Assembly (NCBI GenBank): GCA_030650605.1
Contig: JAUSDP010000035.1
Location: forward strand, 1-63,425
Source: a bacterium
GTDB lineage: Bacteria > Patescibacteriota > Minisyncoccia > Phycocordibacterales > Zambryskibacteraceae
Direction: 5' to 3'
DNA length: 63,425 nucleotides
Positions 12,340 to 34,472 of the stretch are shown one piece after another. Numbering within the stretch: position 1 is the first letter of the stretch; each line of letters begins with the position of its first letter. Under the pieces are notes generated by a model, which worked only from the letters and a program-made list of their open reading frames with translations, did not search any database and was not told the DNA's origin. The position numbers and the translations under genes were made by a program.

Positions 12340-12786
12340 TTAAAATGGTATATCGTCAACATTAACATTCTCTTCAGGATAATCTATAGCGTCAATTCCC
12401 ACACCCTCTTCTGAGGTCGAGATCCCGACTTTAGATATCGGAGCTGGGATACCACCTTCCTTTTTAGGTCCGAATTGTACTCTATCAGCTATAATCTCTG
12501 TACGATAGTTCTTCTTGCCATCTCCACTATCCCAACTCCTAGTCTGTATACGTCCTTCTATATAAATACCGGAGCCCTTTTTCATATATTGATTCACAGT
12601 TTCAGCCGTACGCCCAAAAGCTACAACATTGTGATATTCTACGCTCTCTTGCTTCTGACCATTCTTATCTTTCCACGTATGATTGGTGGCCACCGAAAAA
12701 TTAACTACCGTTGAGCCACTTGGTAGAGATTTGAGTTCCGGGTCTCTAGTGAGATTACCGTAAATGATAGCCTTGTTTATGTACAT
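12340..12786 (-). CDS. ssb: single-stranded DNA-binding protein
   Basis: MYINKAIIYGNLTRDPELK... OB fold, ...YIEGRIQTRSW, and an acidic tail ending DDIPF. Confidence 0.92.
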   Translation of the reverse strand: MYINKAIIYGNLTRDPELKSLPSGSTVVNFSVATNHTWKDKNGQKQESVEYHNVVAFGRTAETVNQYMKKGSGIYIEGRIQTRSWDSGDGKKNYRTEIIADRVQFGPKKEGGIPAPISKVGISTSEEGVGIDAIDYPEENVNVDDIPF

Positions 12787-17777: not shown

Positions 17778-17856
17778 AGTGGAAGCAGTGTATCAATTAT
17801 TTCCCCAACCCGCTACTACATCTAATTTATACGACCGTGAGCTATAGATGTACAGA

Positions 17857-22924: not shown

Positions 22925-23020
22925 TACTAAGAATTTAATTAATCGCTGGATAATTACCAGCCCATATGGTAATATAATAAGCGGAAGTAACGTTTTAGTG
23001 GGTTGAGGAAGGAGTAAAAA

Positions 23021-23191
23021 ATGGAAGGTTATACGATCGGCCAAAGGCCACCGGAGCTGGAGGATGACGGGTCGTTCGCGTCCCCGTTACCGGACATACG
23101 AGTGCACAGTATCGTAGACGACGAGGGGAGATTTCTCATCGTCAACAAGACTACCGGACTACTCGTCGAAGACCCCTCTGAAGACGAGTAG
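23021..23191 (+). CDS. small acidic hypothetical protein (56 aa), below the ORF-track cutoff
   Basis: ATG at 23021 preceded by GAGGAAGGAGTAAAAA (strong SD). Translates to MEGYTIGQRPPELEDDGSFASPLPDIRVHSIVDDEGRFLIVNKTTGLLVEDPSEDE*. Visibly more GC-rich than its flanks. Followed by a long hairpin and a T-rich tail. Confidence 0.4.
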   Translation: MEGYTIGQRPPELEDDGSFASPLPDIRVHSIVDDEGRFLIVNKTTGLLVEDPSEDE

Positions 23192-23254
23192 TCGCCACAT
23201 CAAGAGAGTCGCCCGTCGGTCCACGCTTCTCGGTGTGGCGACTTTCTTTATTTC
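23190..23254 (+). terminator. long hairpin with T-rich tail after the 56-aa ORF
   Basis: AGTCGCCACA (23190-23199) pairs with TGTGGCGACT (23234-23243) around a GC-rich internal segment, followed by TTCTTTATTT. Confidence 0.5.
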
Positions 23255-23364
23255 AAATCCAAAATTTTACCGTACGTCTCAAGTTTGATAATGCAGGAGT
23301 TGATGGTGCTTACAATTTTGGCGCCGATTTTTTACTGGATTGATAGAATAGGATTATTTAACTT

Positions 23365-23398
23365 ACGTTATTAGTTCACGATCGTGAGTTATTAACGT
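23365..23398. promoter_or_regulatory. 34-bp symmetric site D1 (downstream of 23441-24007)
   Basis: ACGTTA-TTAGT-TCACGATCGTGA-GTTAT-TAACGT. Perfect 12-bp palindromic core and palindromic outer arms. Same orientation and layout as U1. Confidence 0.7.
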
Positions 23399-23440
23399 AT
23401 ATAGTGAAGTAGCGAAGTAATGAAATAGTAAAATTTTCGA

Positions 23441-24007
23441 CTAAACTAAATCAAAAAATTCGCGGAGGTGTTTATCGTTTTCAATTTCATCAACAATGAG
23501 ATAAAGAATGTTCTTCCCCACCCCAAGATCAGATTTGAGAAGCGTTAGAATATCTTCGCAATCATACGGATATACCCAAACACTATCTTGCAAGAGATAG
23601 AAACCTGCTGATCTAAATAGAGTTCTGACCTGATCACGTATCTTTCTTTTCTTTTCTGGGATATCAAAAATGATTACTCTCCATTTTTTATCCCATTTCT
23701 TTGGTTTTTCCAGTTTAAAATCGGCAAATTGCCAATTACGAAGGACTTCTTCTCCTTTAGAGGTCATGCAATATCTCTTACCATCATAAAAGAGTAACCC
23801 TCGTTTAACCAACTTACTTGCAGAAGAACTGATATATTCATTTTGTCTCCGCTTTGGAACTAGACCCAGCTTGTGCATAGACTTGGCCACATTTGGCGCC
23901 ACTAGAGCGACACTTAACATTCCTACATTCGCCACAACCTGAAGAATCATTTTTTGTAAATGCTCACGATTGCCTTTCTTTTTACTTTTTTCTTCAATCT
24001 TGCCCAT
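23441..24007 (-). CDS. wHTH + Cas2/PaaX-fold domain protein (paralog 1)
   Basis: 188 aa. Hydrophobic N-terminal helix, then KLVKRGLLFYDGKRYCMTSKGEEVL (winged-helix-like), then WDKKWRVIIFDIPEKKRKIRDQVRTLFRSAGFYLLQDSVWVYPYD (W-x-W-R-hhhFDIPE...GF..LQ.SVW.YP, as in the PaaX middle domain / Cas2-like ferredoxin fold). Confidence 0.6.
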   Translation of the reverse strand: MGKIEEKSKKKGNREHLQKMILQVVANVGMLSVALVAPNVAKSMHKLGLVPKRRQNEYISSSASKLVKRGLLFYDGKRYCMTSKGEEVLRNWQFADFKLEKPKKWDKKWRVIIFDIPEKKRKIRDQVRTLFRSAGFYLLQDSVWVYPYDCEDILTLLKSDLGVGKNILYLIVDEIENDKHLREFFDLV

Positions 24008-24041
24008 ACGTTAATCATTCACGATAGTGATATTATAACGT
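24008..24041. promoter_or_regulatory. 34-bp symmetric site U1 (abuts the start codon of 23441-24007; overlaps a -10 box)
   Basis: ACGTTA-ATCAT-TCACGATAGTGA-TATTA-TAACGT. On the coding strand this reads ...ACGTTATAATATCACTATCGTGA..., i.e. TATAAT 24 nt before the ATG with the palindrome just downstream. Confidence 0.7.
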
Positions 24042-24097
24042 ATATAGAAATTTGATTATCCACAATATTTTAATGTCCTCAACAAAGCCGGGGTTAT

Positions 24098-32571: not shown

Positions 32572-32796
32572 GCAGAGCATATTGTAATGGCTGAGTGATT
32601 ACGTGTTGCCACAGCCCCACGAATATCATAAGGCGACCCGAAAGTCGATATTGTCGGCACCTCTGATCTGTTTGGGTAATCAGGATCTTGAGGAAGTACG
32701 GTTCTCCGCCCTTCTCCCTCTCGCAACAGCGGGAAAAGCGGGTGAACTCTCAAGGATTACTTGGCAATAAAGCCAAGAAATCTAAGGAGGGTTGGC
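32572..32796 (+). promoter_or_regulatory. long GC-rich structured 5' leader / candidate cis-regulatory RNA
   Basis: About 225 nt between the promoter and the SD-preceded ATG at 32797. Hairpins at 32584-32602 (GTAAT..ATTAC), 32660-32693 (CCTC-GATCTG..CAGGATC-GAGG) and 32760-32777 (CTTGGC-AATAAA-GCCAAG). A pyrimidine tract CCGCCCTTCTCCCTCTCGC is complementary to the SD AAGGAGGG. Confidence 0.35.
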
Positions 32797-33135
32797 ATGA
32801 AGAAAATCGTTGTGTTAGATAAAATTGTTGATGGGATTGAGCCGTATGATCGGCAATACGTCTTGGGTGAGGTGGCAGGTTACTGTCGCCGAAACCCATC
32901 GATTTTGCGAAACGCTGGCATAGTGATCGTTATGAGTCGGGGTTATCATTCACGCATAGGTGTGTGGGATGACACCGCAAGGCCGGTTTATTGTGTTTGT
33001 TTCGAGATCGATGAATTGACTGAGGCAAAGAGAGAGTTTCTCCTAGAAGGTATCGGCAGCTGGGCTGTGGAACTCAAAGTTCTGCCGGACTACTGGGAGA
33101 CGACTATCCTCTACCCTAGTGAGTTCAAGAAGTAA
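32797..33135 (+). CDS. hypothetical protein (112 aa), GC-rich orphan
   Basis: ATG at 32797 preceded by TAAGGAGGGTTGGC. Strong terminator downstream. No motif recognised. Confidence 0.5.
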   Translation: MKKIVVLDKIVDGIEPYDRQYVLGEVAGYCRRNPSILRNAGIVIVMSRGYHSRIGVWDDTARPVYCVCFEIDELTEAKREFLLEGIGSWAVELKVLPDYWETTILYPSEFKK

Positions 33136-33144
33136 CCGATCCAT

Positions 33145-33184
33145 AAGCCCGCCACGTCTAGGACGTTCGGCGGGCTTTTTTTGA
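33145..33184 (+). terminator. rho-independent terminator
   Basis: AGCCCGCC-ACGTC-TAG-GACGT-TC-GGCGGGCT followed by TTTTTTT. Confidence 0.8.
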
Positions 33185-33221
33185 TTTATTTATTACCTGA
33201 TTTTCTATATAATAAGAAGAT

Positions 33222-33659
33222 ATGAGCTCCAATCTTGATACTGTTCTAGCCATTTTGAAAAACGAAGTTGATGGTGATGTTTCTGCCGCGCTTGAGAAGA
33301 TGAGCAACGCGTATTCAATGACATGGATGTATCACAGCAAAGATATACTATTCCCTACATCAAAACCAAATGTAGAGAAGGAAATTAAAGAAATATATTC
33401 TACACGAGGGAGAAAATATCGGATTAAGAATACGGCTGAGGGTGAAAATATAGTAATGCTCGAACTTATAGAAAGTTATCTCGACTCAGAAACAGGTCAG
33501 CTTCACCAAACACCGTTAGTGCTTGTTCTTGAGATGGTAGAAGGAAAGATCAAAACCGGACGACATTATTGCGATCCCCAGCTTTCTTATGAAAATTTGT
33601 CTGAGAAACAACTAGAACAAGGATATAGAAATGCGCCCGATAAACAGATTATTGAATAA
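33222..33659 (+). CDS. hypothetical protein (145 aa), possibly NTF2/SnoaL-like
   Basis: Size and alpha+beta pattern only. No catalytic motif recognised. Confidence 0.35.
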   Translation: MSSNLDTVLAILKNEVDGDVSAALEKMSNAYSMTWMYHSKDILFPTSKPNVEKEIKEIYSTRGRKYRIKNTAEGENIVMLELIESYLDSETGQLHQTPLVLVLEMVEGKIKTGRHYCDPQLSYENLSEKQLEQGYRNAPDKQIIE

Positions 33660-33777
33660 TTGATTGTGAGGAACTTGACTTATTTTTAAGTATGAAGCAT
33701 ACAGAGATGTTGCCTACGTAGATTTAGATAACATACAAAAAATTTCATTCGAGAAAGAATAACTATAAAACATACAT

Positions 33778-33811
33778 ACGCTACTTTCATGCTATAGCAT
33801 TATATTAACGT
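33778..33811. promoter_or_regulatory. 34-bp symmetric site D2 (downstream of 33844-34410)
   Basis: ACGCTA-CTTTC-ATGCTATAGCAT-TATAT-TAACGT. Perfect 12-bp palindromic core. Same layout as D1/U1 but a different core. Confidence 0.7.
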
Positions 33812-33843
33812 ATTAAATAAATGATAAATAAGGAAAAAGAAGA

Positions 33844-34410
33844 TTAAATTAGAGCGAAATCTTCTCGTAGATGTTTGTCATTTTCTAGTTCATCAACAAT
33901 TAAATACAGTAAATGCTTACCAACGCCGAAATCAGTCTTTAATAATGTGATGATATCTTCACAATCATAAGGATATACCCAAACACTATCCTGAAGACGA
34001 AGAAATCCTGTTTGCCGAAAGAGCATGGTAATGTAATTTCTAATATTCTTTTTCTTCTCTGGGATATCAAAGATCATTACTCTCCACTTTTTGTCCCATC
34101 TCTTTGGTTTCTTCAATCGAAAATCAGCAAATTGCCAACGATGTAAAAGTTTCTCCCCGTCAGAAGTCAAACAATATTTTTTACCATTATAAGAAAGGAG
34201 TCCCCGTTTAACCAATTTACTTGCCGAAGAAGCTATATATTCTCTCTGCCTAATATTTGTAATAACGCCCAGCTTGCTAAGTGCTTTTATTACATTGGGG
34301 GCTACAAGACCTATACTCAAGACCCCTACGGTCGCTATTGTTTGCAAAATAGCATATTGCAAATTTTTACGCTTGGATTTTTCCCTACTTTTCTCTTCAA
34401 GTTTTCCCAT
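33844..34410 (-). CDS. wHTH + Cas2/PaaX-fold domain protein (paralog 2)
   Basis: 188 aa, collinear with 23441-24007 and roughly two thirds identical by eye. WDKKWRVMIFDIPEKKKNIRNYITMLFRQTGFLRLQDSVWVYPYD. Confidence 0.6.
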   Translation of the reverse strand: MGKLEEKSREKSKRKNLQYAILQTIATVGVLSIGLVAPNVIKALSKLGVITNIRQREYIASSASKLVKRGLLSYNGKKYCLTSDGEKLLHRWQFADFRLKKPKRWDKKWRVMIFDIPEKKKNIRNYITMLFRQTGFLRLQDSVWVYPYDCEDIITLLKTDFGVGKHLLYLIVDELENDKHLREDFALI

Positions 34411-34444
34411 ACGCTATATTAATGCTATAGCATAATTATAACGT
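34411..34444. promoter_or_regulatory. 34-bp symmetric site U2 (abuts the start codon of 33844-34410; overlaps a -10 box)
   Basis: ACGCTA-TATTA-ATGCTATAGCAT-AATTA-TAACGT. The coding strand reads ACGTTATAATTATGCTATAGCAT, i.e. TATAAT 24 nt before the ATG. Confidence 0.7.
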
Positions 34445-34472
34445 ATATGTTTGTTTATTACTAATTTATTTA

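Follow-up and report, generated by a model that had tools for sequence, protein, structure and literature searches.

Two genes in the 63,425-nucleotide contig JAUSDP010000035.1 (assembly GCA_030650605.1, from a Zambryskibacteraceae bacterium of the Patescibacteriota) encode related proteins of 188 amino acids, and each gene lies between two near-palindromic sites. We refer to this whole stretch of DNA as the window, to the two genes as paralog 1 and paralog 2, and to their sites as U1 and D1, U2 and D2, where U stands upstream of the gene and D downstream. Judged by sequence, both proteins are compact members of the PaaX family, consisting of a winged helix-turn-helix (wHTH) domain followed by a Cas2-like PaaX_M domain and lacking PaaX_C. 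Residues in these two domains covary with the bases of the flanking sites throughout the family, which makes it highly probable that the wHTH domain recognizes the outer arms of each palindrome and the Cas2-like domain its inner core. For the system as a whole we favor, with moderate confidence, a reading in which the proteins are autorepressors with paired operators and belong to a resident group of PaaX-family regulators.

Paired palindromes around two compact PaaX-family genes

Exact matches to the pattern ACGYTA-N22-TARCGT are found at only four positions in the window, 23365, 24008, 33778 and 34411, where 0.38 would be expected by chance. Allowing one mismatch adds a single match, at 12359; five matches were reached in 0 of 100 shuffles. 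The four sites form two pairs, one around the open reading frame (ORF) of each paralog (Table 1). When aligned, they define a 38-bp near-palindrome, ATACGYTA-5 nt-12-bp core-5 nt-TARCGTAT, with arms of 8 bp placed 22 bp apart. The original prediction had described D2 (33778–33811) and U2 (34411–34444) as 34-mers. These sequences read exactly as given there, and the core is offset by 11 nt in all four sites, as claimed, but the conserved palindrome is the 38-bp unit. Also as claimed, U2 adjoins the start codon, with its final two bases forming the AT of the paralog 2 ATG, and its TATAAT hexamer ends 24 nt before that ATG. U2 and D2 are identical at 32 of 38 positions in the direct orientation and at 29 of 38 in the inverted one, the latter counted manually. 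D2 begins 30 nt past the stop codon of paralog 2, between convergent genes. A search of the window finds the 12-bp core of each locus at its own locus only. The two cores are not entirely different, as had been stated: they agree at 4 of 12 positions, including the C at half-site position 17 and its mirror G. The outer arms, which had been described as conserved, are indeed shared by the two window paralogs but differ elsewhere in the family.

Table 1. Genes and predicted sites in the window
Feature	Coordinates	Strand	Details
U2, upstream 38-bp palindromic operator (predicted) of paralog 2	34409..34446	-	gene orientation ATACGTTATAATTATGCTATAGCATTAATATAGCGTAT
TATAAT, -10 box within U2	34435..34440	-	site positions 7-12
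Paralog 2, 188-aa compact PaaX-family protein	33844..34410	-	wHTH, then Cas2-like PaaX_M
D2, downstream 38-bp operator copy (predicted)	33776..33813	-	gene orientation ATACGTTAATATAATGCTATAGCATGAAAGTAGCGTAT
U1, upstream operator (predicted) of paralog 1	24006..24043	-	core TCACTATCGTGA; TATAAT at site positions 7-12
Paralog 1, 188 aa	23441..24007	-	69% identical to paralog 2; Y58, S61, R121, R124, D125
D1, downstream operator (predicted) of paralog 1	23363..23400	-	core TCACGATCGTGA; 40 nt past stop codon
Solo family site	17816..17853	-	gene orientation GTACATCTATAGCTCACGGTCGTATAAATTAGATGTAG; TACATCTA arms, TCACGG core

No third paralog was detected in the window by tblastn, and no further site of the paralog 1 or paralog 2 class is present there, the best other scores being at background level. 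Known RNA families and tRNAs were likewise not found in the window or near locus 1.

The divergence of the two proteins is greatest in the N-terminal half, the direction originally predicted, but the difference is only modest (63% identity over residues 1–100 and 75% over residues 101–188). The Pfam model PaaX_M (PF20803), which is Cas2-like, matches residues 103–175 with 62.4 and 74.5 bits (cutoff 24), and weak winged-helix matches to HTH_45 and Sso10a cover residues 64–92. Pfam gives no match to PaaX_C, the helical C-terminal domain to which effector binding is ascribed in PaaX, at E ≤ 1 in either paralog, and the protein ends at residue 188. Scores against the PaaX equivalog model TIGR02277 are 27.2 and 31.5 bits, compared with a cutoff of 264.55, and the alignment spans only model positions 36–139 of 279. 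The Cas2 model TIGR01573 (cutoff 24.5) scores 18.8 for paralog 2 and 26.2 for paralog 1 with only about 40 residues aligned. Some databases label these proteins ‘Cas2’; anti-phage defence models return weak Cas2 and winged-helix matches only. In an AlphaFold model built from 137 homologous sequences, with a predicted local distance difference test score of 72, the recognition helix occupies residues 55–68, the wing is a beta-hairpin at 72–81, and residues 109–172 adopt a beta-alpha-beta-beta-alpha-beta fold. The best structural matches found by Foldseek are E. coli W PaaX (8a39, E 7e-5), then Rv0674 (3kfw), then Cas2 proteins.

PaaX of E. coli and Pseudomonas (8a39, 3l09) has the same order of domains, an N-terminal wHTH followed by the Cas2-like PaaX_M. 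The E. coli protein recognizes TGATTC-N27-GAATCA and represses its own promoter, Px (PMC9493321). Its operator is a long-spaced inverted repeat, to be compared with ACGTTA-N22-TAACGT in the present family. Three features place the window proteins with PaaX: the PaaX_M domain, the wHTH, and an inverted repeat with more than 20 bp between its arms that overlaps the gene’s own predicted promoter (8-bp arms 22 bp apart). PaaX_C, a TIGR02277 score above cutoff and the paa context are absent. Unlike PaaX, which has about 305–316 residues, the proteins have 188; no paa genes are nearby, the neighbors being tpi-pgk, murB and L28; several paralogs occur per genome; a second predicted operator follows the stop codon; and the inner core is apparently read by the Cas2-like domain.

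Close homologs number more than 2,000, all of them in Parcubacteria-type metagenome genomes, with hosts among the Zambryski-, Kaiser-, Adler-, Taylor-, Nomura- and Niyogibacteria. They form 147 clusters at 50% identity with E ≤ 1e-30, and nearly all are about 185–200 amino acids long. Genomes carry several paralogs, and one carries at least six.

The layout was surveyed in 80 loci from reference genomes and 80 from metagenomes (distant members as query); these fetched loci are designated by L-numbers below. Of 144 testable genes, a strict site detector recovered both U and D at 96 and one site or more at 129, whereas the background, 327 random 150-nt windows, gave 8. The presence of flanking sites across the family, by which the original prediction proposed to be judged, therefore held. 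In 55 of 69 loci, the last two bases of U are the AT of the start codon. The first base of D lies at -10 to +97 nt relative to the stop codon (median about 18, mostly within about 0–50 nt), and the U-to-D spacing is about 600–660 bp across loci. Palindrome symmetry is strong in the arms (positions 2–9) and the core (positions 14–19) and near chance in the spacer. Arms and cores vary widely among loci yet match within each locus. The two sites fit each other better in the direct orientation at 71 loci and in the inverted orientation at 26.

Protein–site covariation and a two-part recognition model

Rules connecting protein residues to bases were derived by mutual information from 69 loci and tested on 70 held-out loci; the final tally covers 139 proteins (Table 2). 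The pairs that this picked out in the first set are residue 58 with arm position 5, and residue 125 with core positions 15 and 16. Among the held-out loci, Y or F at residue 58 accompanies G at arm position 5 in 10 of 10 cases, compared with 1 of 59 for other residues (Fisher p 3e-11), and D125 accompanies C at core position 15 in 27 of 30, compared with 2 of 31 (Fisher p 9e-12). The co-evolution of site and protein proposed earlier is thus borne out in 139 members, with rules from one half of the loci predicting the other at p ~1e-11. Overall relatedness does not explain the covariation, because protein pairs less than 50% identical that share residue 125 have the same base at core position 15 in 76% of cases, while pairs at least 70% identical that differ at residue 125 do so in only 23%. 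Arm classes and core classes combine freely across loci.

Table 2. Residues and the bases that accompany them in 139 proteins
Residue	Site bases	Proteins
E57	TAC at arm positions 2-4	99/104
Y/F58	G at arm position 5	42/43
R61	C at arm position 6	32/32
S61	T at arm position 6	60/69
K121	G16 plus T18 in core	56/72
R124	C17 (both invariant)	138/139
D125	C at core position 15	45/50
E125	(A/T)G at positions 15-16	24/25
N125	TG at positions 15-16	13/16

The residues fall into two groups in the AlphaFold model. Residues 57, 58 and 61 share a face of the wHTH recognition helix, and residues 121, 124 and 125 belong to helix alpha1 (118–134) of the Cas2-like domain. The original prediction had assigned reading of the core to the wHTH; instead, the core covaries with residues 121 and 125 of the Cas2-like domain, and residues 57, 58 and 61 of the wHTH track the arms. 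It is the identity of the site bases, and not just their complementarity, that follows the residues, a pattern typical of major-groove readout. The distance from the center of the arm to the center of the core half-site is about 10.5–11.5 bp, which puts both on the same face of the DNA.

Both window paralogs obey the code exactly, with Y58 and S61 paired to TACGT arms. In paralog 2, E57, Y58 and S61 correspond to the arms and K121, R124 and N125 to the core; the combination Y58, S61, K121 and N125 matches ATACGTTA...ATGCTA. In paralog 1, Y58, S61, R121 and D125 match ATACGTTA...TCACGA. Since the two paralogs share their arms, they would be told apart by the core alone.

These observations suggest a model in which each 38-bp site, with its two-fold symmetry, is occupied by a single dimer lying along one face of the DNA. 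Residues 57, 58 and 61 of the wHTH recognition helix would read the outer arm of each half-site at positions 2–6 (TACG/TACA...). Helix alpha1 of the Cas2-like domain would read the inner core at positions 15–18, about one turn nearer the dyad, through residues 121, 124 and 125, with the AT-rich spacer between the two sets of contacts. We infer base contact by alpha1 from the covariation and from the plausible pairings Asp/Glu–C, Lys–G and Arg–G. No structure of a PaaX–DNA complex had been solved at the time of a 2022 review (PMC9493321), and in the searchable literature we found no description of DNA contacts by the Cas2-like domain of PaaX or of this family.

Predicted autorepression and the role of the downstream site

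Of 92 loci, 81 have a -10-like hexamer in U and 36 have one in D. The hexamers of U cluster at site positions 7 (33/92) and 25 (41/92); those of D show no positional peak. A -10 box at either position would place the start of transcription inside the palindrome. The position-25 hexamer ends 6 nt before the ATG, implying a leaderless mRNA. Because U contains the gene’s own -10 box and reaches the start codon, we propose that protein bound at U would repress transcription of its own gene, in a manner resembling that of E. coli PaaX at Px. Autorepression through U is likely, in our estimation, and the -10 boxes in U make plausible the autoregulation part of the earlier suggestion that these genes are insulated autoregulators.

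The same palindromes could in principle act not as duplex operators but as hairpins in RNA or single-stranded DNA, serving as terminators, stabilizers or substrates of a Cas2-like nuclease. Several D sites are palindromic at all 19 of 19 positions, spacers included; D sits in the 3′ untranslated region; and nucleases exist among Cas2 relatives. However, G:U-compatible mismatches are not in excess on the sense strand (G:T and A:C count 61 and 48 in U, and 58 and 51 in D). A -10 box within U would make transcription begin near the dyad or the ATG, so no U hairpin would form in RNA. A terminator scan that requires a T-run after the stem finds none at D1 or D2, and the specificity residues track base identity, not just complementarity. 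We consider the hairpin interpretation very improbable and reject it for the balanced G:T and A:C mismatches and the position of the -10 box.

In the autorepressor model, the same protein would use D as an additional, auxiliary operator. D is slightly more palindromic than U on average (15.0 and 14.3 of 19 positions). It might cooperate with U by looping out the ~620-bp gene, or it might be a protein roadblock to transcription leaving or entering the gene. Either of these specific roles is doubtful, and a choice between them is speculative.

Alternatively, D could be mainly the operator or promoter of the neighboring unit, the bracket being incidental to a regulator encoded next to its target. 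At L038, D is identical to U, TATAAT included, and an M16 peptidase gene starts 67 nt downstream of it. Neighboring genes are bracketed by extra sites of the same class, placed at the 3′ end of obgE-gatB in L050 and L058 and ahead of a 216-aa ORF in L139, and peptidase genes have solo sites upstream. Against this, 73 of 115 loci, among them the two in the window, have a convergent downstream neighbor, and D keeps to about 0–50 nt from the stop codon of the regulator whatever the neighbor. A -10-like box at promoter positions in D is seen in 3 of 22 close tandem contexts and in 18 of 73 convergent ones. As -10 boxes are not enriched in tandem contexts, D as a promoter of the downstream gene was rejected, and an arrangement in which D primarily serves the neighboring unit appears unlikely.

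The third site of L050 (482–519) and L058 (280–317) is of the locus’s own class and stands at the 3′ end of a divergent obgE-gatB operon, adjoining a small putative MerR-like helix-turn-helix gene. The operon is bracketed there in the way the regulator gene is. L048 and L063 lack a site at this place.

Several observations weigh against paired operators of an autorepressor that reads its sites in two parts. No -35 element or Shine–Dalgarno sequence is evident at U2. The helical phasing of the U–D spacing, which could be a sign of looping, gives no clear signal. Spacer identity between U and D is 0.51–0.67, compared with 0.33–0.39 in shuffled pairs, which suggests common descent or homogenization by gene conversion beyond what binding needs. 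The AlphaFold model, which bears on whether alpha1 touches bases, is a monomer of moderate confidence. Finally, orthogonality within a genome is consistent with the data without reaching statistical significance. Across 38 pairs of paralogs in the same genome, the sites differ by at least 1 mismatch; of the pairs from different genomes, 2.7% show none. Of the separate specificities that had been predicted, the difference of sites with protein stands, but the same-genome trend is not significant.

Solo sites, genomic residence and the place of the family

A relaxed scan revealed one solo site in the window, 3 nt past the glyS stop codon, with the ATG of an M16 peptidase gene following after 38 nt (Table 1). 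It is the only one in the 63 kb, and about seven more sites with the family pattern are present in 761 kb of fetched loci. Its TACA arm class fits neither window paralog. TACA arms need I or V at residue 58, which neither paralog has, so a third paralog, with I/V58 and D125, is predicted elsewhere in the genome, outside the window. In L162, whose glyS is 89% identical, the same solo site occupies the same junction. In L165 the solo site is inverted and adjoins a second solo of another class; the gene downstream of them encodes an M3 peptidase and has a homologous leader. At the glyS–peptidase junction of L038 and L160 there is a full U-gene-D cassette of yet other classes, and the two sites of L038 match exactly over 39 bp. 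Read as operators, the solo sites upstream of peptidase genes show candidate targets of the family beyond its own genes, on which its proteins would act in trans.

The region around glyS varies in other ways. In L163 (3853–6182), genes with RVT_1 and bAvd domain matches, a pair typical of a diversity-generating retroelement, lie downstream of glyS in place of the peptidase gene and solo site. In L164, from the same genome as L001, glyS is preceded by an RVT_1 gene, and nothing was called downstream of it. A strong promoter-like sequence, TTGACA-17-TACAAT, is present 3′ of the glyS stop in L163/L164.

Gene order, with gene names assigned at both loci by reading the protein sequences, indicates that the window genes have long occupied their places. 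Paralog 2 follows tpi-pgk and precedes a HIT gene in L001, L002, L008, L035, L010 and L024, with pgk identity down to 50%. Paralog 1 lies between comEC-murB and L28-S2P-S12 in at least 10 loci. In alignments of the pgk-adjacent orthologs, U and D stand out as conserved islands in diverged intergenic DNA, and they change together with the protein: the core is TAGCTATAGCTA in L008, and L035 has ACATTA arms and the core TCACTGGAGT. From this comparison of sequences, both window genes are resident and not recently mobile, because gene order is conserved to about 50% pgk identity.

The DNA next to the two genes has features of its own. The ~440 nt from the L28 gene to D1 (22925–23362) contain no convincing ORF and no Rfam match even at E ≤ 1, with a terminator-like hairpin at 23221–23238 on the plus strand, 3′ of L28; this extra DNA is missing from orthologous loci, L040 and L009 among them. 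In the interval from the HIT gene to D2 (32761–33659), two plus-strand ORFs of 124 and 145 amino acids have no Pfam or PADLOC match, and the equivalent gap in L002 is only about 300 nt.

The original prediction called the unit a ‘floxed’ cassette. In a reading of this kind, directly repeated U and D would serve as recombination sites: a circle would be excised, leaving one site behind, and re-inserted elsewhere. The Cas2-like protein would then be the site-specific factor. The direct orientation of the repeats at most loci, described above, would fit such a mechanism. The glyS–peptidase junction is occupied by a full cassette in L038 and L160, but the window and L162 have a single site there. 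The murB–L28 junction, filled in many genomes, is empty in L013 and carries no site. L047 and L101 carry a duplication, upstream of U, of D together with 80–190 nt of its flank. In L041 (1344–1605), a third site of the same class is followed directly by ATG GGT GAA ACA AAG (MGETKRFKEIFW), a stretch that looks like the decayed start of a lost paralog.

Other evidence points away from excision. Gene order is conserved over the range of pgk divergence given above, and the sites diverge in place. Neither Pfam, NCBIfam nor PADLOC identifies a recombinase, transposase or HUH motif in the cassette; the sole ORF between the sites is the PaaX-like gene, with wHTH and PaaX_M as its only domains. Searching for single-site empty junctions, as had been suggested, did yield the glyS–peptidase site of the window and L162, but its class differs from those of the L038 and L160 cassettes, and it is not a simple leftover of them. 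The solo site is instead operator-like, being conserved upstream of the peptidase gene, with its L165 copy inverted beside a second solo of another class. The U and D repeats are direct, so deletion between them is easy, and homologous deletion between 38-bp direct repeats also explains the loss of a cassette. With conserved gene order, no recombinase in the cassette and operator-like solo sites, the case for a mobile unit is weak; we judge an excisable cassette improbable, and a role of the Cas2-like protein as its site-specific factor equally so. The direct repeats and the flank duplications make a history of excision or insertion possible, which is distinct from a dedicated mobility mechanism.

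The two duplications occur in unrelated loci. In L047 (2789–2932 and 3596–3739), D and a flank containing the 3′ end of a putative CCA-adding enzyme gene are duplicated with 95% identity. In L101 (990–1125 and 2039–2174), the flank includes part of tRNA-Leu and the identity is 88%. Both resemble either integration of a circle by homologous recombination or partial tandem duplication.

The proposed resident autorepressors share features with several other systems. Cas2 is the dimeric scaffold of the Cas1–Cas2 integrase. The family has the same ferredoxin-like fold at residues 109–172, with weak sequence matches; unlike Cas2, a stand-alone protein of about 90–110 amino acids, its members are 188-aa fusions to a wHTH, and their Cas2-like domain is proposed to read bases through helix alpha1. 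No CRISPR-type tandem-repeat array is present in the window, and cas1 was not searched for. In the lac (O1/O2/O3), gal (OE/OI) and deo systems, one protein binds an operator at the promoter and a second copy hundreds of bp away. Here, by contrast, the second predicted operator consistently lies just past the gene’s own stop codon, so a loop would enclose the gene exactly. RAYT genes with REP palindromes, and pdif modules with XerC/D sites, are flanked by palindromic sites specific to them, in paralog-specific variants. The family differs in lacking the HUH/Tyr transposase or Xer recombinase fold, its sites are not dispersed in many copies, and its genes are syntenic over deep divergence.

We envisage, tentatively and at somewhat less than even confidence, a self-contained unit in which the Cas2-like domain reads the core and the wHTH the arms, the gene is enclosed by its own operator pair, and the unit can seed solo operators at gene junctions or leave them behind. 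With more confidence, although still short of the recognition model itself, we regard the family as a compact, multi-paralog, Parcubacteria-specific kind of PaaX with a paired operator and a two-part code. To our knowledge, almost nothing is known about the control of transcription in the candidate phyla radiation (Patescibacteria), and with 147 clusters and at least six paralogs in one genome, this may be a significant family of regulators in the Parcubacteria. If our interpretation is true, these bacteria hold orthogonal regulators with a simple, modular recognition code, given by residue-to-base rules that join residue 58 to arm position 5, 61 to position 6, 125 to core position 15, and 121 to positions 16 and 18. 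The suggested role of the Cas2-like fold in reading DNA bears on how PaaX binds its unusually long operator. A gene enclosed by its own pair of operators is an uncommon layout, and the family could be a natural model of insulated, orthogonal autoregulatory modules.

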